Shown: positions 1,542 to 51,208 of the stretch, in pieces
Layout: every line of letters begins with the position of its first letter
Numbering within the stretch: position 1 is the first letter of the stretch
Assembly (NCBI GenBank): GCA_965202985.1
Contig: CBDBCF010000001.1
Location: 1,312,001-1,376,000 of the forward strand
DNA from: Longimicrobiales bacterium
Lineage (GTDB): Bacteria; Gemmatimonadota; Gemmatimonadetes; Longimicrobiales; Gaopeijiaceae
Direction of reading: 5' to 3'
Length of the DNA: 64,000 nucleotides
Position numbers and translations under genes: made by a program
The notes under the pieces: generated by a model
What the model saw: the letters and a program-made list of their open reading frames with translations, nothing else
What the model was told of the DNA's origin: nothing
The model's database searches: none

Positions 1542-3290
1542 CTAGACGTACCCTTCGCGCTTCATGTGAAGCACGATGCGATGGGCGGCTTCTTCCGGCG
1601 ACGCGTGGGCCGTGTCGATGAGGATGTCGGCGTCGTCGGGCGCCTCGTAGGGGTCCGAAACGCCGGTGAAGGCGGAGACGATCCCGGCGCGGGCGCGGGC
1701 GTACAGACCTTTCGGATCACGCTGCTCGCAGACTTCCAGGGGCGTGGACACGTGGACCAGGACGAAGCCGCCGGCGGCGGCCTCCACCATGCGGCGGACG
1801 TCCTTGCGCACTTGGTCGTACGGGGCGATCGACGCGCACAACGCCACGCCGCCGTTCTTGGCGATCTCCGACGCGACGAACCCGATCCGCCGGATGTTCA
1901 GATCGCGGTGCTCCCTGGAGAAGGTCAGCTCGCTCGACAGGTGCCTGCGAACCACGTCGCCGTCCAGCAGCGTGACGGGCCGACCGCCCATCTCGCGGAA
2001 CTTCACCATCAACGCTCCGGCGATCGTGCTCTTGCCGGCGCCCGACAGGCCCGTGAAGAAGATCACGAACCCCCTCCGGCTGCGGGGCGGAACCGCCCGA
2101 CGCAGCTCCGCCTCGACCTCCGGGAAGGTGAACCAGGACGGGAGCGGCAAGTCCTGGCGCAACCGGCGTCGCATCTCCGTCCCCGAAAGGTGCACGGTGT
2201 CGGACGGGGCGCCGTCGGCCCCCGCGACGTCGCCGGCCTGCCGCACCGCGCCGCGCTTCCGGTCGTAGCGCATCTCCTTGAACGCCACCATCGCCACACC
2301 CAGCTCGGCTTCGTGTTCGCGCAAGAGCGCTTGGGCCTCGTACGGGTCGTAGAAGGGGACGCCGGAAGCGTCCTGGCCCGGCCCGGCGTGGTCGCGGCCC
2401 ACGATCAGGTGGGTGCAGCCGTAGTTCTTGCGCACGATGGCGTGCCAGAGGGCCTCTCGGGGGCCCGCCATCCGCATGGCCAGCGGCAGCAGCGACAGCA
2501 GAGCGATGCCCTCGGGGTAGGCCGACATGACGGCCTGGTAGCAACGAACCCGAGTGAAGTGGTCGAGGTCCCCCGGCAGGGTCTCGCCCACGACCGGATG
2601 CACGAGCAGGCTCGCCGCGGTCTCCTGCACCGCGCGGGTGGTCAGCTCGACGTGGGCCCGGTGCATCGGGTTGCGGGTCTGGAACGCCACCACGCGCCGC
2701 CACCCCATGCGCGCAAAGAGCGCCCGCAGTCCGGCCGGCGAGTGGCGCAGCGTCGGGTAGTCGTAGTGGATCGGCGGCCGCACGGCTTCCACCCTACCGC
2801 CGACCCGCACCGGCCCCGTCTGCTTGCGAAGCCGCGCCGCTCCCGCGTGCTGCTCCAAGTTCGCGCTCGCGCCCTCCGCCCGGCTTGCGAAGACCGCGTG
2901 CGCTTCCGCTTCGACGTCCGCCTCCCATATCTCTTCCGCGCGGAGCGCCGCCAGCAGCGTGCCCTGTTCGTCGCGCAACGCCACCCAGTCGCCCGGCGTC
3001 AGCTTGTCCGCCGTCGCGCGGCTCGCGTCCAGCGTCACGGGCACCGGCCAAAGGGCGCCGTCGGCCAAGCGCATCTCGGACAGCACGCGCTCGTAGTCGG
3101 GCCGAGTCATGAAGCCGCGCAACGGCGAGAAGCCCCCGTTCGCCAGGAGCTCCAAGTCGCAGAGCTGCCGGCGGTTCAGGTCTATGGACAGCCAGTCGCG
3201 CGACGCCTTCGCGATCTCTTCGCGGCGCTCGGCGTCCGCTTGCAGGTCCACCAGCGCTCCCCCGTGGGGCAATACCAGTCGGCCGCTCAC
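1542..3290 (-). CDS. sat: Bifunctional sulfate adenylyltransferase / adenylylsulfate kinase
   Basis: GTG start overlaps the upstream stop (GTGA). ATP sulfurylase motifs PHGG, FQTRNPMHRAH and GRDHAG; C-terminal CysC P-loop GLSGAGKST and RDPKGLY. Confidence 0.93.
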   Translation of the reverse strand: MSGRLVLPHGGALVDLQADAERREEIAKASRDWLSIDLNRRQLCDLELLANGGFSPLRGFMTRPDYERVLSEMRLADGALWPVPVTLDASRATADKLTPGDWVALRDEQGTLLAALRAEEIWEADVEAEAHAVFASRAEGASANLEQHAGAARLRKQTGPVRVGGRVEAVRPPIHYDYPTLRHSPAGLRALFARMGWRRVVAFQTRNPMHRAHVELTTRAVQETAASLLVHPVVGETLPGDLDHFTRVRCYQAVMSAYPEGIALLSLLPLAMRMAGPREALWHAIVRKNYGCTHLIVGRDHAGPGQDASGVPFYDPYEAQALLREHEAELGVAMVAFKEMRYDRKRGAVRQAGDVAGADGAPSDTVHLSGTEMRRRLRQDLPLPSWFTFPEVEAELRRAVPPRSRRGFVIFFTGLSGAGKSTIAGALMVKFREMGGRPVTLLDGDVVRRHLSSELTFSREHRDLNIRRIGFVASEIAKNGGVALCASIAPYDQVRKDVRRMVEAAAGGFVLVHVSTPLEVCEQRDPKGLYARARAGIVSAFTGVSDPYEAPDDADILIDTAHASPEEAAHRIVLHMKREGYV

Positions 3291-25177: not shown

Positions 25178-25350
25178 CTGGTGGATGTCGTCAAGACGGC
25201 TTGACTGACACGAGGCGATTGTCTGGAGGACATCCATCGATGGGGGATCGTCGGATCGACAACGGTTGACCTTCCATTGCGCTCCCAATAGCGTTGTCGG
25301 GCGGCGAGACGGGACCACCGCAAAATCGCTTCAACCAGGGGCTAGCGCAC

Positions 25351-34439: not shown

Positions 34440-35147
34440 GTGAATCTCTCGACCGATTTCAACGTGTGGACCCTCGTGTCCGTGCTGCTGAGTGCCACTG
34501 GACTCTATTTGGCGATGAAGTGGGAGAGGCGCCGCGAGCTGGACAAGCGCTTCGACAAGGCCGAACAACGCGCCAACGAACGCTTCGAGAAGATGGACGA
34601 ACGCTTCGACAAGGCCGAACAACGCGCCAACGAACGCTTCGAGAAGGTGGACGAACGCTTCGACAAGGCCGAACAACGCGCCAACGAACGCTTCGAGAAG
34701 GTGGACGAACGCTTCGACAAGGCCGAACAACGTGCCAACCAGCGCTTCGAGAAGGTGGACGAGGGCCTTGACAAGACCGAGCAACACGCCGACGAACGCT
34801 TCGACAAGGTGGACCAACGCTTCGACAAGGTGGCCACGAAGGACTGGGTTGCCGGACAGTTCGCCCAAGCCAACGACCGGATCGACGAGGTGGGAAATCG
34901 GGTCGACCGGGCAGACGGCCGGATGCGCGAGGGGCTAAGGGACGTGACGGCGTCCGTAGCCGCCCTGGGCGTCAAGGTTTCCGACCTGCAGGCCGAGGTC
35001 CGGGCCGTGAGTACGAAGCTCGACGAACGCACCTACAGGAGCGGGGTGTTGGTCCCCGAGGCCACGGTGCGCGAACCCGCCTCCGAGTATCGCGGGGACG
35101 AGCGGGTCGAGAAGAAGGACGGCGAGGACGAAGGCGCTACTTCTTGA
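34440..35147 (+). CDS. Membrane-anchored tandem-repeat coiled-coil protein (18-aa repeats)
   Basis: AAAGGAGG RBS and GTG; N-terminal TM helix; RFDKAEQRANERFEKVDE-type units x5. Confidence 0.75.
   Translation: MNLSTDFNVWTLVSVLLSATGLYLAMKWERRRELDKRFDKAEQRANERFEKMDERFDKAEQRANERFEKVDERFDKAEQRANERFEKVDERFDKAEQRANQRFEKVDEGLDKTEQHADERFDKVDQRFDKVATKDWVAGQFAQANDRIDEVGNRVDRADGRMREGLRDVTASVAALGVKVSDLQAEVRAVSTKLDERTYRSGVLVPEATVREPASEYRGDERVEKKDGEDEGATS
34548..34832 (+). repeat. Coding tandem repeat, about 5 x 54 bp
   Basis: Near-identical units of CGCTTCGACAAGGCCGAACAACGCGCCAACGAACGCTTCGAGAAGGTGGACGAA. Confidence 0.92.
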
Positions 35148-35730
35148 CGGCGGTCCACCGCATGGCGGGGATCGGTTCGCCGCGGGCGCACGACTCGACC
35201 AGGACGGCCAGTCGTCGGCGTCGAGTCTCTTCGCGCTTTGCGCTCACGACCCACCACGCCACCTGTTTTCGGTAAGACGGGCGCGCGGCCTGGAAGTAGC
35301 GCCAAGCGGCGGGGTCGGCGCGGATTTCGGCCTCGTATGGGGGCGGCAGGCTCACGTCCGCCTGCTCGTAGGACGCCTGCCTCTCCTTGGCGCGGTTCCG
35401 GTCTCGGTAGGCCGCCAGCCCGGCTTCCGCCACTTGTCCCGCCGCCAGCAGCTCGGCCATCCGAGCCAAGTTGCGTGCGCTCCAGTGGCTGTCGCGCCGG
35501 CGCGGCGTGAATCGGATTTGGTAGCGCCGGTCGTCGATGGACTTGCGGATGCCGTCGATCCAGCCGAAGCAGAGCGCCACGTCCACGGACTCCGGCCAAG
35601 TAATGCTGGGCACGCCGGACCCCACCTTGTAGTAGCCCACCCACTGCTCCGCCAGCTTGTCGTGCCGCGTCTCCAGCCAAGCCCGGAACTGGACCGGGCC
35701 GGCGAAGAAGAGCGGCTCGCCCGAGGTCAC
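35137..35730 (-). CDS. YdeI/OmpD-associated family protein
   Basis: FRAWL, ALCFGWIDG, RFTPRR..S.WS..N and SAKREETRRRRL; GTGA overlap. Confidence 0.88.
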   Translation of the reverse strand: MTSGEPLFFAGPVQFRAWLETRHDKLAEQWVGYYKVGSGVPSITWPESVDVALCFGWIDGIRKSIDDRRYQIRFTPRRRDSHWSARNLARMAELLAAGQVAEAGLAAYRDRNRAKERQASYEQADVSLPPPYEAEIRADPAAWRYFQAARPSYRKQVAWWVVSAKREETRRRRLAVLVESCARGEPIPAMRWTAVKK

Positions 35731-38204
35731 GAAGCGGGCATCAGCGTCCACCGTTCCGCCGCGACCGATTCCACCCGCTCGCGCGAGTAGAAGACGGGGA
35801 AGTAGCGGTCGGCGGCCCACAGGTCGAAGAGGTTGTCGTAGAAGGGCGAATCCGGGACGCCGGACTGGCCGGGCGTGTTGGCGCCCAGGGTCCGGTCCCA
35901 GTCGCCGGTGTCCACGATGATCCGGAACGACGCGCCCGAAGTTTGATTGTCGCTGCTGCCCGTGTTGTTGAGCGTGTAGCTGTTCCCGCCCCTGGGCGCG
36001 GGGCCGACGCTGAGTCGCGCCGCCAAGTCGTCCGACACGACCTCGGAGAGCGGATGACGAATGGTGGCGTGCTTGTAGGCGGCTTGCCCGTAGCGCCAGC
36101 CCTCCATGTCGCCGCCGAGCTTGGCCTCCAATTCCTGCACGGCTTCTTCCAGACTGCGGACCAGGACTTGGTCGCGACCGACCACGGGATCGACGCCGAA
36201 TTCGCCTCCCGGCGCCTGCAAACGGCGCACCACCTTGACCATCGCCATGCTCCGCAGGAAGTCTCGGGTCGCCGGAGGCGCGACCAGGGCATGCACGTTG
36301 CGTCGCAGGCGGGCCTCGAAGGCCGCGTAGATGCCCGCCGCGACCGATTCCGGCGCCAGCACGTAGTCCCACCCCAGCAGCATCCGCCGAGCTTCTTCGA
36401 CTTGGGCGACATCGGACGAGACGTGCCGCAGCAGGGGAACCAAGGTTCGCGCAGGCATGGACAGGTAGTCGGTCTGCAACGCCGCCATGTCCGCCATCGA
36501 GTGGCGGCGGCCGGAGCCCAGCACCTCCGACGCTCGGGCCCACCGGTAGGGGTCCGACCACTCCCAGCCGATGGCGTCTCGGTGGGGGTAGTCCGGCGGC
36601 GTCAGGTGGTTGTTGGCGGTGACGAAGAAGCCCTCGGGCGGGTTCAGTACGCTGGGCTTGGCCGGGATCGGCAGGTAGCCGTCCCACTCGTACCGCCCGT
36701 CGCCGGGAACCGGCACCAAGCCGGACCAATTCCGTCGCATGGGCGCAATCCCCACGGCCTGCCATCCGATGTTTCCGTCGCGGTCGGCCCAGACCATGTT
36801 CTCGCCCGGGATGTTGGACCAGCTGCACGCCTCCACGAACTCTTCCCACGTCTTGGCCTGGTCCATGCGAAGGCTGGCCAGGTAGGGAGCGCCGCCGGGC
36901 TCCAGCCACGCCGCGCGGACCGCATAGGCCACGTGGTTTTCCGGGTCCTCGTGGACCACTGGGCCGTGGCGCGTGTACTTGAGCTCGGCTCGGTGCGGCG
37001 CCTCGCCCTTCACCGGGATCTCCTCGACGATCACCGTCATCTCTTCCCATGCGTCCCGGTACCGGTAGCGGTTGGGGTCGGCCGGATCGGTGCGGTAGAC
37101 GTACAGGTCCTCGCCGTCTGTCCTGAACACCGTGAGGCCCCAAGCTCCGTGCCCGTTGTGGCCGATGCTCACGCCCGGTATCTCCGGCTCGCCCCCGCCG
37201 ATCACGTTCCACCCCGGCCCCACCAAGTGCACCCAGTACCGCAGCGAGGGGGCCGACTGGGCGCGGTGCGGGTCGTTGGCCATCATGGGGAAGCCGCTCT
37301 CCGAGAGGCGTCCGCCCACGATCCAGTTGTTGGACCCCGTGCTCTCGCGGTCCGCGTTTCGCCACGGGTGGACATTCGAGCCGGCGGCGGCGTCCAGCAA
37401 CAACCGAGCCGGGCCGCTTCTTCGATGCTCCGGCATCAAGTGGTCGGGTCGGAAGCGGATCGGCCGCCGGAACGCGTTGTACAGCCGGAGGATGTCGGCC
37501 CCCAGCAGGCTGCCGTCGATCGCCGGGTCCAGGTCGATCTCCGGGTCGCCCGGGTGGAAGTTCGCGACTCGCTTGACGGCATCGCTGCCCGCGGCGGCGA
37601 CCGCCCGGCCGTAGTTCAGCTCGGCGCCGATGTTTCCCAGCAGTCCCTGGTGGCGGGAGATCACGACTTCAGGGGTCCATCGCTTGGGACGGATGCCGAG
37701 GAGGCCGAACTCGACGGGCAACAGCGACGGGTCGGCCTCGGTCCGGGCGATCCACGCGTTCACGCCGTCCACGTAGGCCGGAATGATCTCCGACCCCCGG
37801 TCGTGGTAGTGGTTCATCTCCTGCGTCATGTCGCCCCGGTACTTGAAGAGGCGGAAACCGACGTCGCGCTCGATCTCCGACGGCCCCAGCATCTCCGCGG
37901 CCGTGCCTGTGGCCTGGGCTCGCCACACCTCGAACTGGAAGAGGCGATCCCGGGCGGCGGCGTAGCCCTGCGCGAAGAAGAGGTCGTACTCGGTCTGCGC
38001 GTAGATGTGGTTGATGCCCCAGCGGTCGCGGACGATCTCGACAGGCACCTGCAGGCCCGGAACCGCGACGATTTGCTGCTCTTGGGCGGGGCGGCCTTGC
38101 TGGGCAGCCGCCTCCGCGACGCCGACTGCCAAGAGAACGACCGCTCCGGCCAGCATCCGGGGCGCGGGTGCCGCAATAAGGCAAGGATCGAAGTTGGTCT
38201 TCAT
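35727..38204 (-). CDS. Penicillin acylase family (Ntn) amidase
   Basis: RDRWGINHIYA, QGY..A.DRL.Q, GSNNW, ANDPH, TANN and PGQSG. Confidence 0.92.
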   Translation of the reverse strand: MKTNFDPCLIAAPAPRMLAGAVVLLAVGVAEAAAQQGRPAQEQQIVAVPGLQVPVEIVRDRWGINHIYAQTEYDLFFAQGYAAARDRLFQFEVWRAQATGTAAEMLGPSEIERDVGFRLFKYRGDMTQEMNHYHDRGSEIIPAYVDGVNAWIARTEADPSLLPVEFGLLGIRPKRWTPEVVISRHQGLLGNIGAELNYGRAVAAAGSDAVKRVANFHPGDPEIDLDPAIDGSLLGADILRLYNAFRRPIRFRPDHLMPEHRRSGPARLLLDAAAGSNVHPWRNADRESTGSNNWIVGGRLSESGFPMMANDPHRAQSAPSLRYWVHLVGPGWNVIGGGEPEIPGVSIGHNGHGAWGLTVFRTDGEDLYVYRTDPADPNRYRYRDAWEEMTVIVEEIPVKGEAPHRAELKYTRHGPVVHEDPENHVAYAVRAAWLEPGGAPYLASLRMDQAKTWEEFVEACSWSNIPGENMVWADRDGNIGWQAVGIAPMRRNWSGLVPVPGDGRYEWDGYLPIPAKPSVLNPPEGFFVTANNHLTPPDYPHRDAIGWEWSDPYRWARASEVLGSGRRHSMADMAALQTDYLSMPARTLVPLLRHVSSDVAQVEEARRMLLGWDYVLAPESVAAGIYAAFEARLRRNVHALVAPPATRDFLRSMAMVKVVRRLQAPGGEFGVDPVVGRDQVLVRSLEEAVQELEAKLGGDMEGWRYGQAAYKHATIRHPLSEVVSDDLAARLSVGPAPRGGNSYTLNNTGSSDNQTSGASFRIIVDTGDWDRTLGANTPGQSGVPDSPFYDNLFDLWAADRYFPVFYSRERVESVAAERWTLMPAS

Positions 38205-38335: not shown

Positions 38336-38467
38336 ATGATGCACGTCAAGCTGAGCGACGAGCAGTGGGGGCGGATTCGCCACCGCTTCCCCGAGAAGTT
38401 ACGGCACGGCGTGGAGGCGGTGACGTTGGAGGATGTGGCGCGTCGGCGGCTGGCGCTCGGAGGCTAA
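38336..38467 (+). pseudogene. IS5-family transposase N-terminal remnant
   Basis: 43-aa ORF MMHVKLSDEQWGRIRHRFPE... matches the LSDEQW.RI...FP start of IS5 (DUF4096) transposases, then diverges. Confidence 0.55.
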
Positions 38468-40127
38468 TCCCTTGGACGGCCGGCCCTCGGGGCGAGCTCC
38501 TGCACGGCGACGACGAATCGGCATACTCCTGGGCAACACCGATTGCAATCCGTGGCTCTACGAGACCGTGCGGGACCTAGCCGCGGCGGACAACATGGAG
38601 CTGTGGTTTCTGGTCAACGACCGCCCGCCGCCGTGGCATACGACCCTTGCCCGTGTCTGCTTTCGCGTCCTGGCGTTCGCCGAGTCCGCCCTCATGCGGT
38701 TGTGCCGGTCCAAGACGGCTGCGGCACGGAGTCCGACCAGGAGCGTCTTGGCCTTTTCCGAGCGAGTGCTGTCCGTGTCGCCGGAGTTCTCGCCGTCGGG
38801 ACTCTCGGTTCGATACCCGGTCAAGGACATTGAGCGGATCCGGGAAATCGGGTTTGACCTCCTTGTCCGCGGCAACGCTGAACGCATCTTCCGCGGGGAC
38901 ATCCTCCACGCCGCGAAGGACGGGATCTTGTCCTGGCACTACAGCGACAACCGCTGTATCCGAGGCGGCCCGCACGGATTCTGGGAAGTCTACCATCGGC
39001 AGCCGTCGTCCGGCTTCGTTCTGCAGGTGCTGACGGAGGAACTCGACGGTGGGAGCGTCGTGTTCCGGGGCAATGTGGCGACGCAACGGTTCTACACAGC
39101 CAATGCCGCCTCGCTTCGCAACCAGAGCAACCCGTTCCTTGCCAAGATCGTTCGGGACTACGCCGACTCCGGACGTCTCCCCAGGCCGGAGGAACCGGTT
39201 CCTTACTCGGGGCCCCTGTACCGCACTCCTTCCGTCGGCCAGTCGGCACGCTATGCGTTGCGGGTGGCGGCGACTTTGCCGGCGGCGGCTTGGGCCCGGT
39301 TTCGTGCCAAGAGCCGCATGCGGACGAGTCCGTGGCAAGTCGCTTTCGTCGAGAGGCCGTGGCGCGTCGCGGTGCTGCGGCGCGGTACTCGCATCAGGAA
39401 TCCCCCCGGAACGTCCCAAGCCGACCCCTTCGTCGTCGCCCGCGACGGCCGCACCGTCGTTTTCGTTGAACAGTTGGTGCACGCAAGGAAGCGAGGGCAC
39501 ATCGCGGCCGTCGAGCTGCTTGGGGCAAGCAAGTACCGCATGCTCGGGCCCGTCATAGCGGAGCCTTTCCACATGTCTTTTCCGTACGTCTTCGAGCACG
39601 AGGGGCGCCTCTACATGACGCCCGAGACCACGGAAGCGAACGCCTGTCGGCTCTACGAATGCACGAGGTTTCCTCTCGAGTGGACGTATCGCGGCATTCT
39701 CTGCGAGCGGCCTCTGCACGACCCCATCGTGTTCGAGCACGAGGGTCTGTGGTGGCTGTTCGGCACCGAGTGCGTGGGAGGCCGCGAAGCGACTTTCTTG
39801 CTGGCCTTCTGGGCTGACAACCCGCTGTCTGGAACGTGGTCCCCGCACCAGTGCAATCCGCTGGTCGTCGATCCGCAAACGGCCCGCAACGGGGGCATCC
39901 TCTTCGATGCCGGGGGGGACCCCGTCCGCGTCAGGCAAGCGTACGGCTTCGGCGCAAGCGCAGCCTACGGGGAGTGTTGCTCGCTGGCTCGGATCACGAA
40001 GCTGACGCCCCGTGCCTTCGAGGAGCAGCAGATTGCGGAGATCGCTCCCGAGTTCTTCCCGGGAATCCGCGGGTGCCACCACATGAGCGGCAACGACCGC
40101 TGGACCACGTACGACTACCGCCGCTGA
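38433..40127 (+). CDS. Formyltransferase-like + five-bladed beta-propeller protein (glucosamine inositolphosphorylceramide transferase family-like)
   Basis: ILSWH..DN...RGGP.GFWEV and LTEELDGG; C-terminal ADPF, HMSFPYVF, DP and RNGG; start uncertain. Confidence 0.7.
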   Translation: MWRVGGWRSEANPLDGRPSGRAPARRRRIGILLGNTDCNPWLYETVRDLAAADNMELWFLVNDRPPPWHTTLARVCFRVLAFAESALMRLCRSKTAAARSPTRSVLAFSERVLSVSPEFSPSGLSVRYPVKDIERIREIGFDLLVRGNAERIFRGDILHAAKDGILSWHYSDNRCIRGGPHGFWEVYHRQPSSGFVLQVLTEELDGGSVVFRGNVATQRFYTANAASLRNQSNPFLAKIVRDYADSGRLPRPEEPVPYSGPLYRTPSVGQSARYALRVAATLPAAAWARFRAKSRMRTSPWQVAFVERPWRVAVLRRGTRIRNPPGTSQADPFVVARDGRTVVFVEQLVHARKRGHIAAVELLGASKYRMLGPVIAEPFHMSFPYVFEHEGRLYMTPETTEANACRLYECTRFPLEWTYRGILCERPLHDPIVFEHEGLWWLFGTECVGGREATFLLAFWADNPLSGTWSPHQCNPLVVDPQTARNGGILFDAGGDPVRVRQAYGFGASAAYGECCSLARITKLTPRAFEEQQIAEIAPEFFPGIRGCHHMSGNDRWTTYDYRR

Positions 40128-40146: not shown

Positions 40147-42126
40147 CTACGCCTCCCGCCTCCTCGTCACCTTGATCTTGAAGTTCTTCGCGGGCCTCGG
40201 CGTGGGGATGTTGCTGACCTGGAGTTCGTAGTTCCGCGGGTGGAGTTCCATCTCCACGCCGTTCATCAAAACGGCCAGGATGAGCAGCGTCTGGAGATCG
40301 GCGAAGCCTGCGCCCAGGCAGCGATGCACGCCCACGCCGTAGGGAACGTATGCATGAGGCTGCCGGTGCTCGGCGCGCTCCGGCAGGTACCGGTCGACAT
40401 CGAAGCGCTGCGGTTCGGGGAAGTGCTCGGGCAGGTGATGGGTCGCCGCTTGCGGAAGGAACATGGGCGTGCCTGCGGACACGTGATAGCCCGCGAAGTC
40501 GAAGGAGTTGGCCGCGACCCGGAAGAGCACGGGGGCCGCCGGCCACATGCGCATCGACTCCATGATCAGGCGACGCGTGACATCCAGCTCAGCCAACTTG
40601 GCGGCCGACGGCCCGCCGGAAAAGAAAGCGTCTGCTTCCGCGACGACCTTTTCCTTCAGCTCCGGGTACTTCAGCGCGGCGTAGAGGTTGAAGGCGCACG
40701 TGTTGGCCACGGTCTCCATTCCCGCGAGGAAGGGAGCGATCGCCCAGCCGCTCATGTCGGTCTCGGGTATGAGCTGCGGGTCACGGCGGTTCAGGTCGAT
40801 CAGGTCGCTGATGAAATCGCCGGAGTCGTGGAACGGCCCGCCCGGCCCATGGGCCTCGAGGATCTCGTGCGCAACGGTCTCCACGCCGCCCTTCGCCTTC
40901 TTGAACCTGCTCGCGAACAGCAGCCATGGCAGCTGCTTGGTCACCTTGGTCTTCAGCAAGATGTCGAGCATCGTCGCCATGTCCTCGACCTGTTCGGAGG
41001 CCGACCGGTTCGCCAGAATCCTTCCCATCTGCTCGGCGACGACCTGCTGCAGGAACGGCAAAGGATGCAGGGGCCGGCCCACGGGCAGGGCGGCAACTTG
41101 CCGGTGCACGACTTCGTTGGCGAGGTCGAAGCACTGGTTGAAGCGGGGGCGACCCAGCGCGGGGGCGAACGCCTTGCGTATCGCGAAGTGCTCCTGCCCC
41201 TCCATGTTCAGCACGATCCTGTGCATGTTTAGGCCTTCGGCAAGCCCCTGGAACGGTTCTCTCGAGCTGAAGCAGCGCCGCCCCTGGCGGTTCACGAAGC
41301 GGTTCGCCTCCTCGCCCACCAGCACCAGAAGCGTCCTGCGCAGAATGCGAACCTCGAACATGGGACCCAGCTCCACGTACTGTTCGGCCAGGAAGCGCCC
41401 CAAGTCGATCGACGCCTCGCGGACGTTGCCGACGAACGGCAGCCCCTTGGCCATCGGCGGCTTCTTCAACCGCGGGCGCGGGGTCTTCTTCTCCTCGGAC
41501 TCGGACTCGCGCACGGCCCGGGTCACGGCTTGGCCGATCAGGTCGAGGCGACGCACCGTATCGATCCGCTCCCGCGCCTCTTCGAACTCCGCCTTGGCGA
41601 GCATCCCCTTGAAGACGCCGCAGGCGTCGGCCAAGCAGATGATCACCACGTCGCGCGGCCCGGGCACGTCGTCGCTGAATAGCACGCCCATGATGCGGAG
41701 GCGCACCTCTTGCTCCGCCTTGCCGCCCACGGTCGGGTAGCGCTTGGCCCGGGCCACCTTGGTCGTCGTTTCGATCGCGCCCTCGTCGGCGGACCGAATG
41801 ATGCCGGCCTCGACCAAGCGCTGGAGCGACGACGCCCGGATGCGCTCGCCGTCCTGCGCGAAGTGCCGCACCCAGTACTCGGGCGCACGCGGTTCGGGGT
41901 TCTCGGCCAAGCGCGCCAGCACCGGGTCCAGCACATCGTCGCCCAGAGGCGCGGAATCGACCACCGTCAGCTGCTGCAGGTCCGTGTCGATCCGGTTCTC
42001 GTGCGCCAAGTCCATGAGCACGGCGCCCGCCAGCACGTGGTTCAAGTCGCGCTCGGGCACGAGCGCCAAGCTGCCGGAGTCCTCGTCGATGAGGAGGAGA
42101 AGCAGCTCCTCGGCAAACCTCAGCAT
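40147..42126 (-). CDS. GPP34 (GOLPH3/Vps74) domain-cytochrome P450 fusion
   Basis: N-terminal ~205 aa: AEELLLLL.D, LAGAVLMDLA..RI, L.RLV..GII and RYP. P450 part: PMAKGLPFVG, AGMET, ESMR, PQRFD..R and heme motif YGVGVHRCLG. Confidence 0.88.
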   Translation of the reverse strand: MLRFAEELLLLLIDEDSGSLALVPERDLNHVLAGAVLMDLAHENRIDTDLQQLTVVDSAPLGDDVLDPVLARLAENPEPRAPEYWVRHFAQDGERIRASSLQRLVEAGIIRSADEGAIETTTKVARAKRYPTVGGKAEQEVRLRIMGVLFSDDVPGPRDVVIICLADACGVFKGMLAKAEFEEARERIDTVRRLDLIGQAVTRAVRESESEEKKTPRPRLKKPPMAKGLPFVGNVREASIDLGRFLAEQYVELGPMFEVRILRRTLLVLVGEEANRFVNRQGRRCFSSREPFQGLAEGLNMHRIVLNMEGQEHFAIRKAFAPALGRPRFNQCFDLANEVVHRQVAALPVGRPLHPLPFLQQVVAEQMGRILANRSASEQVEDMATMLDILLKTKVTKQLPWLLFASRFKKAKGGVETVAHEILEAHGPGGPFHDSGDFISDLIDLNRRDPQLIPETDMSGWAIAPFLAGMETVANTCAFNLYAALKYPELKEKVVAEADAFFSGGPSAAKLAELDVTRRLIMESMRMWPAAPVLFRVAANSFDFAGYHVSAGTPMFLPQAATHHLPEHFPEPQRFDVDRYLPERAEHRQPHAYVPYGVGVHRCLGAGFADLQTLLILAVLMNGVEMELHPRNYELQVSNIPTPRPAKNFKIKVTRRREA

Positions 42127-42139
42127 GTCCGTTCGCGCG

Positions 42140-43285
42140 TCATTCGGCGGCGGGGGGCGGCTCGTAGCCCCAAGCGTCCACTGCGAACCCCCACTCGTCG
42201 GTGATCCGGTCTATCGTCGCCTGCGGCAACGTGAAGCGGTTCTTGCGGTAGCCCGCCACCGTCTTCAGGTATGCCTCGATGCGTTCGCGGGCGACGCTCC
42301 AACCGGAGAGCTCCAGCTCCTCGTACACGCGCCCCAGCTCGCCCAGCGGATCCTTGTCCAGGTCTTCGTAGCGCACCTCGGCGAAGTGCCCGTCCGGAAT
42401 CAGCTCGCGGTCTCGCATGTACTTGGACATCAACAGCTTGTAGGTGTCGACAATGTGCTGCTCCACTTCGTCCCAGTCGTAGTCGTCCAGCTGGTACAGC
42501 GGCAGCATCGTGCGGTTGAGGTGCATCACCGAGGGGTAGACGGCGTACGGATTGCGGATGATGTGCAGGAACTTCGCGCCCGGGAAGAGGCGCGCCAAGT
42601 GGTCGGAGCGGGCGATATTGAGCGTGTTCCGCAGCATCGGGGGCTTGCCGCCGGAGTGGAGGACCACCTTTCGCACCTCGCGGACGTAGACGCGCTCCCA
42701 CTGGCGCAGCTCCCGCGCCGACAGGCTGCCGTCGGGAGAGCCGTCCGGCCCTGCGCCCATCATCACGTACTTGGCCACCGTCTCCCGAAACAGCTTGGGG
42801 AACGCCAGCTGGTGCACGGCCGACAGACGCGACATGGCGGCAACGGCCAGGTCCTCTTCCTGCGGCGAGTCCAGCGTGACCTTGACGTTGTCCATGGGCC
42901 GGGTCTGCTCGCCGGCGGCCTCCATGGCCTTCCGCAGGAGCCGCTTGATCCAGCCGCTCGCAACGAACGAGAACGGCGCCGCCACGCACTGGAAGGTGTT
43001 GAAGTAGCCCCACTGCGGATCCTGGGCGAGCAGGTACTGCAGGTGCGTCGAGCCCGTGCGCGGGAAGCCCAGGACGAAGAACGGCGGCTTGTCGATGGGC
43101 GTCCTGGCGATCTTCCTCGAGAACGCCACCCGCTCGGCCAGCCGCAACGGGGTCGTCGTCGTGGACAACGCGAGGATGCCGGCGAACTTCCGCCAGTACC
43201 GGCGCGGAATGCCGCCGTTGTCCCAGACGAGGCGCAGCCAAAGGAGGGGGGATGCGAAGGTTGCAGGGTGAAAGTCGTCCTTCAT
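42140..43285 (-). CDS. Stf3-like PAPS-dependent sulfotransferase (Sulfotransfer_3)
   Basis: PFFVLGFPRTGST, RPMDNV, PQEED, FPGAKFLHIIRNPYAVYPS, RYEDL and Y.KN; overall layout as in mycobacterial Stf3. Confidence 0.87.
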   Translation of the reverse strand: MKDDFHPATFASPLLWLRLVWDNGGIPRRYWRKFAGILALSTTTTPLRLAERVAFSRKIARTPIDKPPFFVLGFPRTGSTHLQYLLAQDPQWGYFNTFQCVAAPFSFVASGWIKRLLRKAMEAAGEQTRPMDNVKVTLDSPQEEDLAVAAMSRLSAVHQLAFPKLFRETVAKYVMMGAGPDGSPDGSLSARELRQWERVYVREVRKVVLHSGGKPPMLRNTLNIARSDHLARLFPGAKFLHIIRNPYAVYPSVMHLNRTMLPLYQLDDYDWDEVEQHIVDTYKLLMSKYMRDRELIPDGHFAEVRYEDLDKDPLGELGRVYEELELSGWSVARERIEAYLKTVAGYRKNRFTLPQATIDRITDEWGFAVDAWGYEPPPAAE

Positions 43286-43290
43286 GTCAG

Positions 43291-44985
43291 TCAGGCCTCG
43301 TGTGTGGTTGCTCCGCCGGCGACGGTGCGCAGGACGGGGATTTCCTTGATGGCGCCGGGATCGGCGTCGTGGGGATCGGAGGCCAGCGCCACGAAGTCCG
43401 CCAGCTTGCCCGCGGCGATCGACCCCTTGTCGTGCTCCTCGAACGACGCGAACGCGCCGCCCATAGTGCAGATGCGCAGCGCTTCGCCCACGCCGATCCG
43501 CTGGCTCGCGCCCCACACGCGGCCGTCGAAGTCCGTGCGGGTCACCATGCTCTGAACGGCCATGAGGGGCTCGTAGGGACCGGGCGTGTAGTCCGACGCC
43601 GGCGCCACAGGGATTCCGTGGTCCAGAAACGACCGGTGAGCGAACATCCACTCCATCTTCTCGGGACCGTACTCCACCCACTTGTTGCCGTGATAGTGGA
43701 CGTAGGTGTAGAAGGGCGTGGGCACGACTCCCGCGGCCTTGATCCGCCGGAGCAGGTCCGGGTTGACCAGGGAGCAGTGCTCGATCCGATGGCGCGGGTC
43801 GGGCCGGGGCCAGCGGTCCTGGACTCGCTCGTAGGCGTTCAGCACAATGTCGATGGCGATGTCGCCGTTGGCGTGGATGCCGACCTGCCAGCCCGAGCGG
43901 TGGGCTTCCTCCACCACTTCGTGAACCTCTTCCTGGCTCATGGTGAGGATGCCGTAGTCGCCGGGGCGGCCCACGTAGGGCGTGCTCATGCGCATCGTGC
44001 GCTCCGAGGCCGATCCGTCGGCGCCGTACTTGACGGGCCCGACCCGCAGCCACTCGTCGCCGAAGCCCGTGGCCACGCCGGCCCGGCGCAAGTCCTGGTA
44101 CGGACCACGCACGAGCATGTAGACGCGGCAGCGCAGTTCGCCAGCGGCGTAGGCGGCCTGATAGGCCTTGAGGCTGGCGGCCGACGTGCCGGCGTCGTGA
44201 AAGGAAGTCAGTCCGGCCTGCGCCATCAGTCGGGTGATCAGGGCCACGCCGGCTTGGCGGTCGTCGTCGGTGTGGGTGTTGGGGATCAGCGAGCGGAAGA
44301 CGTAGTTGGCCCGCTCGGCGACCAAGCCCGTGAGCGCGCCGTCCTCGCGGTAGAACTTGCCCCCGTCGGGGTCGGGCGTGTCGGCGTCCACCCCGGCCAG
44401 GGCGAAGGCTCGGGAGTTGTACACGCTGGTGTGGCCGCCCCGGTGTCCCACCACCGCAGGATGGTCCGGGACCGCTTCGTCCAGGTCCAGCCGGTTCAGA
44501 GGCCGCCCTTCGGCCAGCTTGGTGTCGTCGTACTTGAAGCCGACGACCCACTCGCCGGACGGAGTCTGCCGCGCCCGCTCGGCCATCCGGTCCTTGATCT
44601 CGGCTACGCTTCGGACGTCCACATTCACGTCCTTCAGCTCCCGAACGCCGGCCCCCGCCGGGTGCGTGTGGGCGTCGACGAACCCGGGGACGATTGCGGC
44701 GTCGCCGTGGTCGATCACCCGCGTCCCGGCGCCCCGCAGGTTCTCCACGTCTGCCCGGGAGCCCACCGCCACGAAGCGGTCGTCCTTCACTGCAAAGGAC
44801 TCGGCTCTGGGGTTGGCGTCGTCCATCGTGTGGATCGTTCCGCCGTGGACGATCAGGTCCGGGGGCGCGCCTCCTCCTCCATCAAGGCCGCCGCGGGCTC
44901 GGCCGCCGGATCCGCACCCGGTCGCCAACCCTGCGCCGGCACCGGCGGACAGCCCCAGGAACCGGCTTCTGGTGATTCGCGTCAT
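43291..44985 (-). CDS. YtcJ-like amidohydrolase (Amidohydro_3), Tat-like lipoprotein signal
   Basis: TRSRFL...LATGC; PGFVDAHTH, ADGS, HANGD, RIEHCS and ASDY. Confidence 0.88.
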   Translation of the reverse strand: MTRITRSRFLGLSAGAGAGLATGCGSGGRARGGLDGGGGAPPDLIVHGGTIHTMDDANPRAESFAVKDDRFVAVGSRADVENLRGAGTRVIDHGDAAIVPGFVDAHTHPAGAGVRELKDVNVDVRSVAEIKDRMAERARQTPSGEWVVGFKYDDTKLAEGRPLNRLDLDEAVPDHPAVVGHRGGHTSVYNSRAFALAGVDADTPDPDGGKFYREDGALTGLVAERANYVFRSLIPNTHTDDDRQAGVALITRLMAQAGLTSFHDAGTSAASLKAYQAAYAAGELRCRVYMLVRGPYQDLRRAGVATGFGDEWLRVGPVKYGADGSASERTMRMSTPYVGRPGDYGILTMSQEEVHEVVEEAHRSGWQVGIHANGDIAIDIVLNAYERVQDRWPRPDPRHRIEHCSLVNPDLLRRIKAAGVVPTPFYTYVHYHGNKWVEYGPEKMEWMFAHRSFLDHGIPVAPASDYTPGPYEPLMAVQSMVTRTDFDGRVWGASQRIGVGEALRICTMGGAFASFEEHDKGSIAAGKLADFVALASDPHDADPGAIKEIPVLRTVAGGATTHEA

Positions 44986-45325
44986 CAAGCTTCTCTTGCC
45001 TGGAATGGAAGAGTCCACCGACCATGCCCGCCGCCGCGCCCCGCCTAGAGAGTACCACCGGGGCCAGTGCCGCCGCCAGCCCGAACCTAACCGCGACTGC
45101 TTCCACGATGGCATCATCCGCTGGACAATGACGCGACCGACGTGGGCCGCCGTGGTGGGCGTGACCGGGGGCTGCACGGCTACGTGAGCGAGCCCGAGCG
45201 CGGTCGGCGGAGCTGGAAGAAGGGCAGGGAAGCCCAGAAAGCCGGTCTATGCGAACCGGCGGCGGGTCCGGGGCGAGCGCCTCTTGGGACCGCTTCAACG
45301 CGCCAAAACCCGTTTATAGGGCATA

Positions 45326-46390
45326 TCAGTCGCCAACAGGGAGTTCCCACAAGCGAAGAGTCGGGAACAAGTCGTTCTCCAGAGTCGCAAGCCGACCGTC
45401 TGCCAGAACCGTGATCGCGTCCACGTCGCGTGGGAACAAGTAGGATCCAAGGTACTCGCCGCCTTGCGTCGAATATGTGTCCACCACACGCCCTGCATGG
45501 CTAGTGGACCCAAAGTACAGCACGTAAATCCGGGACGTGGTGGCCGCTGCTCCCCGCGCCGCCCTCACAGCCTTGGGGTCGACCTTGAATCCAGTGCCGG
45601 TCCAACCGGGCCCCGATGCGCTCACTGCAACGACTTCGGGAAAAGGGATCGCCTCTACGCCATCTGCGAGAACGCCTACGCTGCCGTCGGCTTCCAAGAT
45701 GATCATCTGGCTGGACCAGCGGAAATAGACTGCCGCACGGCCGCCCGGTATTTCTGCGGCCCAGCCCTCGCCGGCCAAGTCATGATCGAACGCCATCTGC
45801 GCTGGCATGAGCACGGTCCGGCGCCGAACACCGGTCTTGGAAAACGACGTCCACAAGGTGTCTCGCTTGTTCGTGTGCGGCACGACGGCGAAGTGTCCTG
45901 GGTCAAAGGACGGGGGCAACAGGGACGCCGGCAGCCCACCCGGAACGGGCACGGTTGCGAGAAGTTCCCCTGCCGAGCTGACGACCGTAATCCGGCGATT
46001 CCACGGATCAAGGACGTGAAGGCTCCCGTCTTCGTCGAACTGCAAGTCGATAAAGGCCAAGAATTCTCCAGGCCCCGGACCGTTGCGTCCGAACTTCCAG
46101 ACGAGTTCGCCGGCGGCGGACACCTCGCGGATCGAGAAGTCTCCCCAGTCGGTCACCACCAGCCCTCCGCGTGGACTGCGCTGGATCTGCAGAGGACGTG
46201 TCCCAAGGAGAGTCCCATCGACATCCTCCCAGGCGGCGACTTCCACGGGGGTTGGCAACCATCGACGCTGAGCGTCCAGTGCGGCGACCGGGCCTAAGAG
46301 CGTCATGCCTCCGAACGCCGTGCACCAAGTCGCCGCTGCAGCGGTTCTCAGAATGGGGCCAGCCCTCCTTCCTTGTACCCCTCCCAGCAT
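45326..46390 (-). CDS. Secreted 6-bladed beta-propeller (NHL/TolB-like) protein
   Basis: FGRNGPGPGEF, LHVLD..NRRI and VVDTYS..G.YLGS; lower GC3 than flanks; start uncertain. Confidence 0.7.
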   Translation of the reverse strand: MLGGVQGRRAGPILRTAAAATWCTAFGGMTLLGPVAALDAQRRWLPTPVEVAAWEDVDGTLLGTRPLQIQRSPRGGLVVTDWGDFSIREVSAAGELVWKFGRNGPGPGEFLAFIDLQFDEDGSLHVLDPWNRRITVVSSAGELLATVPVPGGLPASLLPPSFDPGHFAVVPHTNKRDTLWTSFSKTGVRRRTVLMPAQMAFDHDLAGEGWAAEIPGGRAAVYFRWSSQMIILEADGSVGVLADGVEAIPFPEVVAVSASGPGWTGTGFKVDPKAVRAARGAAATTSRIYVLYFGSTSHAGRVVDTYSTQGGEYLGSYLFPRDVDAITVLADGRLATLENDLFPTLRLWELPVGD

Positions 46391-46580: not shown

Positions 46581-48089
46581 TCACGGCGTTCTTCGCCGGA
46601 AGGGGTCTCCCACAACGCGGCGCACATCCGCCAGCACGGTGGCGGCGTCGGGCGGGGGCTTGGTCAGCAGGCTGACGACGACCGTCAGCAGAAACCCGAC
46701 CGCGAAGCCCGGGATCATTTCGTACAGGTCGTAGAAGCGCGCCTTAAGGGGCGTCACGACCCAGACGATCGCGGTGGCGAAGCCGCCGATCATGCCCGCC
46801 ACGGCGCCGGCCCGCGTGGTGCCGGCCCAGAACAGCGAGCACAGCACGACGGGCGTGAACGCCGAGGCCAAGCCCGCCCAAGCGAAGAGCACGAACCAGA
46901 AGATCAGGCGGCTCTCGGGCAAGGCGAAGGCCAGTCCGCCAAGGCCGATCACGACAGTCAGGACTCGTCCGACAGCCGCAAGCCGTCGTTCGGGTAGGCT
47001 CGGGGCGACGACCTTCTGGACCACGTCGCGCACCACTGCGGACGAGGCCAGGATCAGCAGCGAATCCACGGTGGACATGATCGCCGCGATCACCACCACC
47101 AGGACCAGACCGGCCACGACCGCCGGGAACAGTTGCGTGGCCATGGCAGGCAGCACGGTCTCGGGGTCGGCCAGCCCCGGAAACAGATGGCGTCCGGCGA
47201 TTCCGGCCAAGACCGCTCCGACATCGAAGACCACGATGCACAGGACGGCGATGAGGCCGCCCCCGGCGATCTGGCGTCGGTCGCGCGCCGACATGAACCG
47301 GGTCAGCAGCTGCGGCGCGCCCAGGAACGCGAGGCCGATCCCCGCGAAGCTGACGGCGCTGACCACGCCCTGCAGGGTCCATCCGTGTTCGCCCATGGGC
47401 CGCAGAAGCGCCGGGTCCGCCTGTCCGACGCTGGCCATGAGGGCGCTCCAGCCTCCGGCGTGCCATATGCCCGCCACCGGAAGCACCAGCAGGCACAGGA
47501 ACATGAGCACGCCTTGAACCAGGTCGCTGTACGCCACGGCCTTGAAGCCGCCGATGCTGGTGTACAGGAAGATCACGGCGGCTCCGACGAGCACGCCCGT
47601 GCCGTAGCCGGTCCCCAGGAACGACTCGAACGTCTTGCCCGCGACCGTCAGCTGGGCGGCGGTGTAGGCCACGACCATGGTGAAGATGATGACGGCGCTG
47701 ATCAGCCGCAGCACATGGCGGCGGTCCTGGAACCGGTCCGACAGGTAGTCGGGCACGGTGATGGCGTCGCATCGGTCGGTGTGCTCCTTGAACGGCCGGG
47801 CCACCAGCGTCCACGCCAAGGCAACGCCCAGGACTTCGCCCAGGACCACCCACATGGCGTGGAACCCCACCAGATAGCCCATCCCCGTCAGCCCCAGCAG
47901 CAACCAGCCGCTCTCGCCCGTGGTGTTGGCGGAGAACGCGATCACCCACGACGGCAGCTTCTTGCCGGCCACGTAGAAGCCGGCCACCGAGCGGTTCTCG
48001 CGACTGGCCCACCACGCGATGCCGACGAGCACCAGGAAGTAGGCGGCCAGCACCGCGACGATCGTGGCGCGGCCGTCGGGGTTGCTCAC
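46581..48089 (-). CDS. Sodium:solute symporter (PutP-like)
   Basis: ESGWLLLGLTG, GGFKAV..SD..QG, G.PQLL.RFM and AAIMSTVDS; many TM helices. Confidence 0.92.
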   Translation of the reverse strand: MSNPDGRATIVAVLAAYFLVLVGIAWWASRENRSVAGFYVAGKKLPSWVIAFSANTTGESGWLLLGLTGMGYLVGFHAMWVVLGEVLGVALAWTLVARPFKEHTDRCDAITVPDYLSDRFQDRRHVLRLISAVIIFTMVVAYTAAQLTVAGKTFESFLGTGYGTGVLVGAAVIFLYTSIGGFKAVAYSDLVQGVLMFLCLLVLPVAGIWHAGGWSALMASVGQADPALLRPMGEHGWTLQGVVSAVSFAGIGLAFLGAPQLLTRFMSARDRRQIAGGGLIAVLCIVVFDVGAVLAGIAGRHLFPGLADPETVLPAMATQLFPAVVAGLVLVVVIAAIMSTVDSLLILASSAVVRDVVQKVVAPSLPERRLAAVGRVLTVVIGLGGLAFALPESRLIFWFVLFAWAGLASAFTPVVLCSLFWAGTTRAGAVAGMIGGFATAIVWVVTPLKARFYDLYEMIPGFAVGFLLTVVVSLLTKPPPDAATVLADVRRVVGDPFRRRTP

Positions 48090-48202
48090 CGACCGGCGTC
48101 TCGGCGGCCATGCGCCCAGTACGCCGCGAAGCCCATGACCAGCCCGGGCACGGTTGCCGCCAGCATCAGGAGCCAAGCGCCCCAAGGGAGTCCGGCGATC
48201 AC
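48086..48202 (-). CDS. 38-aa single-TM accessory peptide upstream of the SSS transporter
   Basis: MIAGLPWGAWLLMLAATVPGLVMGFAAYWAHGRRDAGR; GTGA overlaps at both ends; below the ORF-track cutoff. Confidence 0.75.
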   Translation of the reverse strand: MIAGLPWGAWLLMLAATVPGLVMGFAAYWAHGRRDAGR

Positions 48203-49587
48203 GAAGCCGCCCCGGCAGCGTCGCAAGCGGCGTCGCAGGCTCTGGACAGGCGCCGCAGCACCTCGTCCACCTCGTCTTCCGCGATCAGCAGGGACGGGCC
48301 CAGCCGGATCACGTGGCCGTGCAGCCCGCCGACGCCGATCAGCAGCCCCTGGGCCTTGGCCGCTTCCAGCAGCGCGGCCGCCAAGCCCGGCGCCGGCGTC
48401 TTGGACGACGGGTCCTCGACCAGCTCCAGCGCCTGCATGAGGCCCATGCCACGAACCTCGCCGATCCAGGCGTGCCGACGTCCCAGCGCGTTCAGCCCTG
48501 CGCGCAACTGTCGGCCGCGCTCGTGGGCGCGAGCCGGGACGTCGTCGGCTTCCATGACCCGCAAGGCCGCCGCCATGCCAGCCATGCAGATCGGGTTGCC
48601 GCCGAAGGTGGACAGGGTCTTGCCCCGCCAGCTGGCCGCCACTTCTTCGGATGCCGTGACCGCGCCCACGGGCAGTCCGGCGCCGATGCCCTTGGCGGTC
48701 ACCATCAGGTCCGGGACCACGTCCCAGTGCTCAATCCCGAACCAACGCCCCCCGGTTCGGCCAAAGCCCGACTGGACCTCGTCGCTGACGAAGACGCCGC
48801 CGTAGGAGCGGATCGTCTCGGCCATGCGCTGGAAGTAGCCCCGGGGCGGCACGATGTAGCCCCCAACGCCCTGGATCGTCTCGGCGATCAGCGCCGCCGG
48901 GCGGCCGTTTGTGGTCGTCTCCACGACCTCGGCCAAGTCGCGGGCGTAGATCTCGGCCAGCTCTTCGTCGCTGCGGGGGCCGAAGGGCGCCCGGTAGGGG
49001 TAGGGCGCCAGCGCGTGGACGATCCCCGTCTGGGTGCTGGGCAGGACGCGCCATGGCGCATGGGCCGTCGCGGAGGCCGCCAAGCTGGTGCGTCCGTGGT
49101 AAGCGTGCCGGAGCGCCACCACCTCGGTGCGCCCGGTGTGCAGGCGCGCCGCCGCCAGGGCGGTTTCGATCGCTTCGGTGCCGCTGTTGAGGAAGAAGGT
49201 CCGGCTCAGGTTCCCCGGCGCCAGCCGCGCAAGCGCCTCCGCGGCCTCCACTTGGGGTTCGTTCGCGTACAGCGTGGACACGTGGCCTAGGCGGCCGGCC
49301 TGCTCCCGCACCGCCGCCACCACTTCCGGGTGACAGTGTCCCAACGAGGTGGTAAGGATGCCGGCGAAGGCGTCCAGGTATTCGCGGCCGTCGGCGTCCT
49401 TGACCCAGCATCCGGCGCCTTCGGCCAAGGCCAAGGGCTCCTGGTAGAGAGGCTTCACGCAGTCGAAGAGGACCGCGCGCTGGCGCTCGAGCAGCGAGGC
49501 CGAGGCCGCTCCCGCCGCCGAAAGCGCTTCGGTTCCCGTCGACGCGGTCGTCACGCCGGATTCGCCGGTCGCCACGCCCGCGCTCAC
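48199..49587 (-). CDS. Class III aminotransferase (AGXT2 / beta-alanine aminotransferase-like)
   Basis: YLDAFAGI.T..LGHCHP, NSGTEA, AETIQGVGG, DEVQSGFGRTG, TAKG and TFGGNP. Confidence 0.9.
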   Translation of the reverse strand: MSAGVATGESGVTTASTGTEALSAAGAASASLLERQRAVLFDCVKPLYQEPLALAEGAGCWVKDADGREYLDAFAGILTTSLGHCHPEVVAAVREQAGRLGHVSTLYANEPQVEAAEALARLAPGNLSRTFFLNSGTEAIETALAAARLHTGRTEVVALRHAYHGRTSLAASATAHAPWRVLPSTQTGIVHALAPYPYRAPFGPRSDEELAEIYARDLAEVVETTTNGRPAALIAETIQGVGGYIVPPRGYFQRMAETIRSYGGVFVSDEVQSGFGRTGGRWFGIEHWDVVPDLMVTAKGIGAGLPVGAVTASEEVAASWRGKTLSTFGGNPICMAGMAAALRVMEADDVPARAHERGRQLRAGLNALGRRHAWIGEVRGMGLMQALELVEDPSSKTPAPGLAAALLEAAKAQGLLIGVGGLHGHVIRLGPSLLIAEDEVDEVLRRLSRACDAACDAAGAAS

Positions 49588-51062: not shown

Positions 51063-51208
51063 GGAGCGCGCTCCTTTTGTCATGGGGCGAAAGTGCCTTG
51101 CCCTAGGAAGCTGGACAAGTCCGGCGCGCGGGATCAAGCACTCGGCGGTTCCGGGCCGGGCGCGTCCGCGGTCCGCCCGTGCTCGGACTGGCCTTGTGCC
51201 GGATCATG

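Follow-up and report, generated by a model that had tools for sequence, protein, structure and literature searches.

In a 64,000-nucleotide stretch of a Longimicrobiales genome (contig CBDBCF010000001.1, positions 1,312,001 to 1,376,000; hereafter the window), a sulfotransferase gene lies next to a gene for a GPP34-cytochrome P450 fusion, GPP34_L, and our analysis supports the view that the two form a conserved, co-evolving, mobile cassette of sponge symbionts. The reading that we prefer, held tentatively and with slightly less than even confidence, is that the pair oxidises and sulfates an imported sterol or a related triterpenoid. Its two parts differ in strength: the P450 and the sulfotransferase probably share a substrate, and if they do, a sterol is somewhat favoured as its class. 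An earlier note, made from the window sequence, had proposed a three-gene operon, including an upstream amidohydrolase, that hydroxylates and then sulfates a lipid in the manner of Cyp128 and Stf3 from Mycobacterium tuberculosis. The conservation of the pair, the broad sulfotransferase family and the encoded supply of the sulfate donor 3'-phosphoadenosine 5'-phosphosulfate (PAPS) uphold the general idea of an analogous pathway, while the close analogy with Cyp128/Stf3 is weak.

A conserved two-gene cassette

The pair belongs to a run of three co-directional open reading frames (ORFs) on the minus strand at 40147-44985, lying exactly 5 and 13 bp apart; ORF coordinates and Pfam matches agree with the earlier description of this arrangement. 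An amidohydrolase (44985-43291, 564 aa; Amidohydro_3, PF07969, E 1e-93) is followed by the two core members, the sulfotransferase (43285-42140, 381 aa; Sulfotransfer_3, PF13469, E 7e-31) and the fusion (42126-40147, 659 aa), in which a GPP34 domain (PF05719, aa 5-207, 41506..42114) precedes a P450 domain (PF00067, aa 223-633, 40228..41460), each scoring above its cut-off. The G + C content at third codon positions (GC3) is 0.89-0.92 for the three genes, consistent with real genes. A 4,790 bp contig from sponge-metagenome run X1, a run possibly linked to the source sample, covers 40365-45161 with all three genes and 13 differences. The five best sequencing-run holders (X1-X5) are all sponge metagenomes and the nearest named records for the locus are metagenome-assembled genomes of Longimicrobiales, identifying the host as a sponge-associated member of this order. 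No RNA dataset is listed among the sequencing-run holders of the locus, and a promoter and terminator scan of it returned chance-level matches only.

Linkage was surveyed in 151 genomes of the family and 401 of the phylum, which are overlapping samples, by counting full-length sulfotransferase homologues of at least 40% identity; the loci of G008, G081 and G126 (28-35% identity) lie outside these neighbourhood counts. In all eight Gemmatimonadota genomes with such a homologue, a GPP34-P450 gene directly adjoins it, so the linkage between the two genes is conserved, and it is found in both gene orders. The sulfotransferase comes first in five genomes (G000, which is the genome of the window and 92% complete, G055, G101, G124 and G330) and the P450 in three (G378, G379 and G445). 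The layout in G445 is cysD, P450, sulfotransferase, cysNC; that in G379 is P450, sulfotransferase, cysD, cysNC; and in G330 an ecdysteroid-kinase-like gene follows the P450, with a cysD-cysNC frame about 3.5 kb beyond. When the source contigs of the top 120 matches of each protein were compared, 23 agreed exactly in size, against a null mean of 0.34 (maximum 3 in 600 shifts), and the size-matched contigs include ones of 3.4-8.7 kb, some barely longer than both genes. A scan of 80 metagenome loci from the Joint Genome Institute, mostly of distant homologues, found GPP34 at none and a P450 at one (L054, with an overlapping stop codon). One record, P0287, has the appearance of a natural sulfotransferase-GPP34-P450 triple fusion and was rejected as such: its P450 frame is left before the heme Cys and then reads into the sulfotransferase. 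We treat it as a probable frameshift read-through in a single record and a sign of the P450-first order only.

The two genes have diverged together. Identities across 29 sulfotransferase/P450 pairs mirror one another down to 34%/41% identity (Mantel rho 0.91, 0/2000 permutations), the paired P450s are scattered over the whole GPP34_L tree, and dN/dS values of 0.24-0.36 place both paired genes under purifying selection. In G128 a single deletion has removed both, joining sulfotransferase codon 41 to the P450 heme region and leaving the amidohydrolase in place. G124 belongs to a different genus; there the pair occurs by itself at another site, and homology is limited to 40148-43287. Synonymous divergence (dS) of the pair is 0.07 to G055, 0.24-0.28 to G124 and 0.57-0.67 to the congener G101; because the pair is closer to G124 than to this congener, we infer that the cassette was transferred recently.

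The sulfotransferase and the GPP34-P450 fusion

The sulfotransferase has all four motifs that had been taken as a full Stf3-like layout (G.PRTG.T, R.MDN, PQE and FP.AKF.HI.R.PY.VYPS). It falls within the broad Stf3/BT0416-like family, with PF13469, an N-terminal helical extension, a PAPS loop, MDN and PQEE, and the 3'-phosphate-binding R-x-P-Y-x-V-x-x-S is present; the N-terminus is made up of basic amphipathic helices with no strong transmembrane segment. The layout holds for the motifs and the broad family. The PAPS loop is another matter: it reads G-F-P-R-T-G-S-T, with R-N-T in place of K-S-P, and while Stf3 has His-Trp after the Gly of this loop (supplement of PMC7404182), the window enzyme and its clade carry G-[FY]-[AGP]-R. 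The enzyme is also unlikely to cluster with Stf3: five environmental proxies with the Stf3 loop motif (a 12-residue motif) are split from it by a branch with an SH-like approximate likelihood-ratio test (SH-aLRT) value of 99; these proxies take the place of Rv2267c (Stf3) itself in the tree, and the distances to Stf3 and CYP128 rest on motifs and proxies. The nearest folds are STF9 and STF1. NCBIfam returned no Stf3- or BT0416-specific match, and ESM Atlas generic names only.

A second point of comparison is the cholesterol sulfotransferase BT_0416 of Bacteroides with its PAPS cluster BT_0411-0415, for which a cysQ-SLC13-cysC-cysD-cysN layout is described in the accessible text of PMC9417993 and PMC13696130. 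The comparison was made with the positional homologue within such a cluster in B. finegoldii, in place of BT_0416 itself; homology is full-length, with 29% identity over 350 aa. Both systems belong to host-associated bacteria, and clustering with cysD/cysN/cysC is also seen in relatives of the window pair. They differ in that the window enzyme lies in a separate clade, with G-F-P-R in the PAPS loop as opposed to G-H-W-R, and in that the Bacteroides cluster has no P450. Orthologues of BT_0416 are about 75% identical within the group tested in PMC13696130; at 28-29% identity to the positional homologue and in a clade of its own, the window enzyme is not one of them. Several members of its family (P0288, P0290, P0317, P0319, P0289, P0333 and P0358) are fused to desaturase/alkane-hydroxylase-like, fatty-acid-hydroxylase or NAD_binding_4 reductase domains, which would make lipid hydroxyls, and others adjoin hopanoid, squalene and PAPS genes; both features support a lipid acceptor in general.

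The catalytic motifs of the P450 are intact (heme Cys603, ExxR E523/R526 and the acid-alcohol pair E471/T472). Among 113 homologues, C603 is conserved in 112, E523/R526 in all 113, Asp or Glu at 471 in 112 and T472 in 110, and the model of the fusion has a mean predicted local distance difference test (pLDDT) score of 89. Among solved structures, bacterial CYP51 comes closest (24-25% identity to Methylococcus CYP51), followed by CYP120, CYP170 and CYP102, and the top 60 PDB sequence matches are all of the CYP51/120/170/102/3A type; identity to the P450 of a sterol cluster in G378 is 24%. Members of a P450 family share about 40% identity or more, and at 24-25% the window P450 falls outside CYP51. 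CYP128, which we take to be a small bacterial P450 type, differs by eye in its motifs. The domain is thus best described as probably of the large CYP51/CYP120/CYP102-like type, with membership of CYP128 unlikely, and the close analogy to Cyp128 is weak on this count as well. There are six Fer2 matches in G000, none of them assigned.

The fusion of GPP34 with PF00067 has been published as GPP34_L, reported from sponge symbionts only and from 92.6% of a set of 54 genomes of symbiotic Gemmatimonadota (Ferreira et al. 2025, Microbiome 13:4, PMC11706023). With identical architecture and a sponge-symbiont host, the window protein is a GPP34_L; it differs from the published description in being paired with a sulfotransferase and in having lost most of the phosphatidylinositol 4-phosphate (PI4P) pocket. 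In the accessible text a secreted PI4P-binding effector is proposed and the P450 is given no role, and the word 'sulfotransferase' has no occurrence in the main text and one text supplement, to which the flanking-gene Fig. S11 does not belong. A profile built from ten GPP34 domains finds both GOLPH3 and Vps74 (E 5e-15), whose PI4P-pocket residues are W81, R90, R171 and R174; paired alanine changes at pocket sites abolish lipid binding and Golgi targeting (PMC2806290). In a profile alignment, as distinct from a structure superposition, these residues correspond to P24, A33, E94 and R97, one of the four being kept; among the 113 homologues, Ala33 occurs in 111, Asp or Glu at 94 in 91 and Arg97 in 98. 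With three of four pocket residues lost, GOLPH3-type PI4P binding is unlikely, which makes the published effector model less likely, as well as the claim, in its simple form, that the P450 carries its own membrane-targeting domain. No leader is present, and the sequence opens immediately with the GPP34 fold. We suggest that the domain may be a PI4P-independent membrane or partner adaptor. A second GPP34-P450 in G000 (C2:755167-757149, 45% identical) has no sulfotransferase neighbour, and two stand-alone GPP34 genes lie elsewhere in this genome (C1:1205803 and C1:1664299).

Sterol context and proposed mechanism

Neighbourhood context leans towards a sterol over a quinone. At the 14 unpaired GPP34-P450 loci, the neighbours include a KshA-type Rieske oxygenase (3/14), a sterol-methyltransferase-like gene (1/14) and a resistance-nodulation-division (RND) pump (4/14), in a selective scan that took in 22 ORFs, the neighbours at L148 and L151 falling outside the ORF filter. 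G378 has a full sterol cluster 22-36 kb from the pair on the same contig (L127:17409 to L128:8141). The cluster, which stands back to back with cysD/cysNC, comprises an SdmA-like Rieske protein, ERG24, a P450, a squalene epoxidase-cyclase fusion and a sterol methyltransferase. The genome of the window holds an orphan ERG4/ERG24-family sterol-reductase gene (C1:764606-765640, L139) and a squalene/phytoene synthase; no sterol cyclase was found in the 92% of it that is represented. Clusters of steroid genes (CSGs) and sterol methyltransferases have been described from sponge symbionts (PMC9531527 and PMC10070321, respectively, as far as their accessible text goes), that is, from the same habitat and phyla, and the cluster of G378 is of this kind. 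CSGs build sterols, whereas G000 has no cluster and just the ERG4/ERG24-family gene. No sulfotransferase term occurs in the main text of either paper.

In the mechanism that we propose, both enzymes would share one lipophilic substrate and act on it at the membrane's cytoplasmic face. The P450, served by a ferredoxin encoded elsewhere, would add a hydroxyl, and the sulfotransferase would move sulfate from PAPS onto a hydroxyl of the substrate. The substrate would be a sterol or triterpenoid taken from the sponge or from other symbionts and the product an oxygenated sterol sulfate, with GPP34 acting as a membrane or partner adaptor that makes no use of the GOLPH3 PI4P site. As sterols already carry a 3-hydroxyl, hydroxylation need not precede sulfation. 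PAPS would be made by the bifunctional Sat-CysC at 1542..3290 (minus strand), about 39 kb from the pair, which the earlier note had correctly recognised (PRK05537, 817 bits against an NCBIfam cut-off of 669); it is the sole adenosine 5'-phosphosulfate kinase found in G000 and the likely PAPS source.

Several points weigh against this reading. A cyclase was found in just one of the eight pair-bearing genomes, so the sterol would have to be imported, from the sponge or other symbionts, and no sterol uptake system was identified. The sulfotransferase is no closer in identity to the Bacteroides enzyme (28-29%) than to Stf3-motif proteins (27-31%), and sequence therefore does not decide its substrate; nor does 24-25% identity to CYP51 predict that of the P450. 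The catalytic roles of both enzymes are themselves predicted from sequence. The partnership is not obligatory, as this sulfotransferase accompanies the GPP34-P450 at just 8 of the 22 loci read. A metagenome locus with a 50% identical sulfotransferase (L017) has no P450 within 6 kb, and three loci at the edge of the clade (L020, L084 and L087) likewise have none nearby, leaving 8 of 12 clade loci paired. Mirrored trees may arise from co-transfer or kinship alone, the contig-size test is indirect evidence of linkage, and the loci read directly come from one family only.

In related genomes, the site near cysD/cysNC holds changing gene sets in L129, L131, L133, L135, L107 and L106 (G082, G148, G137, G005, G445 and G379), among them P450s, sulfotransferases and MpaB/Lcp-like oxygenases, with an NAD-epimerase-P450 fusion in G148. 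A second oxygenase-sulfotransferase pair is found in G000 itself at C1:1983798-1985950 (L140), where another sulfotransferase directly precedes an MpaB/Lcp-like oxygenase match.

Alternative substrates and roles

If the substrate were the cell's own menaquinone, the pair would omega-hydroxylate and sulfate it in a pathway convergent with that of the cyp128-stf3 operon of M. tuberculosis, the precedent for sulfomenaquinone (PMC7404182, accessible text). The two systems have in common an adjacent P450, a sulfotransferase of the same broad family and N-terminal layout, and the hydroxylate-and-sulfate logic. Menaquinone is always available, with menA and menB in G000 and menB in all eight pair-bearing genomes, a point that also counts against an imported sterol; no futalosine pathway was found in G000 at its 92% completeness. 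We nonetheless consider menaquinone decidedly unlikely: the window P450 is fused to GPP34 and is not of the small CYP128 type (typed by eye), the sulfotransferase lacks His-Trp and stands outside the proxy clade, the pair occurs in both gene orders, men genes never adjoin it in the eight loci read, menB is also present in G128, which lost the pair, and the neighbourhood points to sterols. We hold another lipid to be an unlikely substrate as well, though less so than menaquinone; candidates are hopanoids or squalene products, polyprenyl hydroquinones, carotenoids and long-chain alcohols. Sulfated meroterpenoids are known from sponges. The lipid hydroxylase and reductase fusions of the sulfotransferase family would suit such a substrate, CYP102 is the second-nearest P450 fold, and P450 and sulfotransferase steps are expected yet unidentified in the routes to sponge merotriterpenoids (PMC5618424, accessible text). 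Distant homologues adjoin squalene-hopene cyclase/HpnH-like genes (L116 and L024), a squalene/phytoene synthase (L114) and a carotenoid gene (L021); these homologues, however, lie outside the sponge clade. No hopene cyclase was found in G000 and six other pair-bearing genomes, and the match in G378 is the squalene epoxidase-cyclase fusion of its sterol cluster. Two of the distant loci are candidate sulfated hopanoid pathways in their own right: in L116:2236-8989 (G059) the sulfotransferase homologue comes directly before a squalene-hopene cyclase and an HpnH-like cluster, and in L114:7862-9976 (G507) it follows the squalene/phytoene synthase.

Oxidation followed by sulfation is the general logic of detoxification, and a phase I/phase II module for diverse metabolites of the host or community (halogenated aromatics, for example), with no single dedicated substrate, would match a cassette that is mobile and dispensable, as well as the RND pumps beside 4 of the 14 unpaired loci. 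Long co-divergence and amphipathic, membrane-facing helices better fit a defined lipid substrate, and no exporter adjoins the pair in the eight loci read, making a detoxification role distinctly improbable. According to the published proposal, the fusion is secreted as an effector, binds PI4P and stops phagosomes from maturing (PMC11706023, accessible text), in which case the sulfotransferase merely co-travels. The restriction of GPP34_L to sponge symbionts reported there is in keeping with such a role, as are the 14 of 22 loci with no such sulfotransferase and the retention of one pocket arginine, R97 (GOLPH3 R174), in most homologues. Yet the counterparts of W81, R90 and R171 have been replaced by Pro, Ala and Asp/Glu, the protein has no leader and its linkage to the sulfotransferase persists through a change of gene order, so that we judge an effector role very unlikely. 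A P450 also needs cytoplasmic redox partners, which speaks against secretion.

Implications for GPP34_L and sponge sterol sulfates

The fusion is already published; its pairing with a sulfotransferase was not found in print, no paper containing both 'GPP34' and 'sulfotransferase' having been found in a searched literature from which most subscription journals are missing. Few proteins specific to sponge symbionts are as widespread as GPP34_L, and the existing published idea is host manipulation via PI4P. The sulfotransferase partner, the sterol-related neighbours and the degenerate PI4P pocket together provide a competing, testable metabolic hypothesis. Should the substrate prove to be a sterol, the two proteins would be candidate enzymes for the sterol sulfates reported from sponges (PMC6723502 and PMC7551063), and bacterial sterol sulfation of the gut type would extend to the oldest animal symbiosis. 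A bolder proposal, which we think rather unlikely in its full form, is that the cassette is the bacterial source of the oxygenated sterol sulfates that have long been isolated from sponges and credited to the animal, and that it has spread by gene transfer among symbionts. GPP34_L would then be a family of sterol-tailoring oxygenases in which GPP34 has been repurposed as a PI4P-independent membrane adaptor. Its partners, namely a sulfotransferase, kinase, Rieske oxygenase or methyltransferase, would be interchangeable, and some of them occur in genomes in which no sterol cyclase was found.

The amidohydrolase and other genes of the window

The amidohydrolase at 43291..44985, which presumably resembles YtcJ, is a resident backbone gene outside the two-gene unit. 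It adjoins the pair in three of the eight pair loci (G000, G055 and G101), all from one genus, whose backbone at this site runs symporter, amidohydrolase, penicillin amidase. G128 has kept it at 91% identity despite loss of the pair, and G124 has the pair alone; towards G055 the amidohydrolase has a dS of 0.28 and the pair one of 0.07, indicating a different history. Of the two options raised in the earlier note, the loci of G128 and G124 thus favour an incidental neighbour and contradict membership of the operon or pathway. A single three-gene pathway, with substrate release by the amidohydrolase, would account for the 5 bp gap, the shared strand and the same order in all three genomes, and co-transcription is likely. 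It is largely refuted by the loci and divergences just given, and the lipoprotein-like leader of the amidohydrolase points to another compartment; we regard it as extremely improbable. The leader has a lipobox-like Cys and a single arginine of the twin pair, in the sequence R-S-R-F-L here and R-G-R-F-L in three relatives; T-R-[SG]-R-F-L and the Cys are conserved in 4/4 copies from the genus, the second Arg being absent. The consensus for lipoproteins of the twin-arginine translocation pathway is S/T-R-R-x-F-L followed by a lipobox. Export, as asserted previously, is plausible from the lipoprotein-like leader, though not canonical given the incomplete twin arginine.

The backbone flanks are a penicillin amidase family gene (35727..38204, minus strand) downstream of the pair and a PutP-like sodium:solute symporter (46581..48185, minus strand) upstream of the amidohydrolase. 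The symporter belongs to a minus-strand block at 46581-51137 that also holds a class III aminotransferase and a methylmalonate-semialdehyde dehydrogenase (TIGR01722, above cut-off), and it is with this amine/beta-alanine-type catabolic block that the amidohydrolase more likely belongs. Between symporter and amidohydrolase lies an inserted gene (45326-46390, minus strand; 354 aa) that shows a weak NHL/propeller-like match and has several paralogues in the genome; it is missing there in three relatives. On the other side, convergent with the P450, a plus-strand ORF of 564 aa at 38433-40127 has a GINT1_N domain (PF24793) and a lower GC3 of 0.81; G101 and G128 lack it and a contig from run X7 skips it, and so it is a variable insertion. 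Further away on the plus strand, a PqqD-like small protein (25294-25650) and a second, unrelated sulfotransferase (PF00685; 26618-27535) lie about 0.9 kb apart, possibly as a peptide-modification remnant, and a small protein in which an 11-residue coiled-coil unit is repeated (34466-35147) adjoins a GIY-YIG gene.

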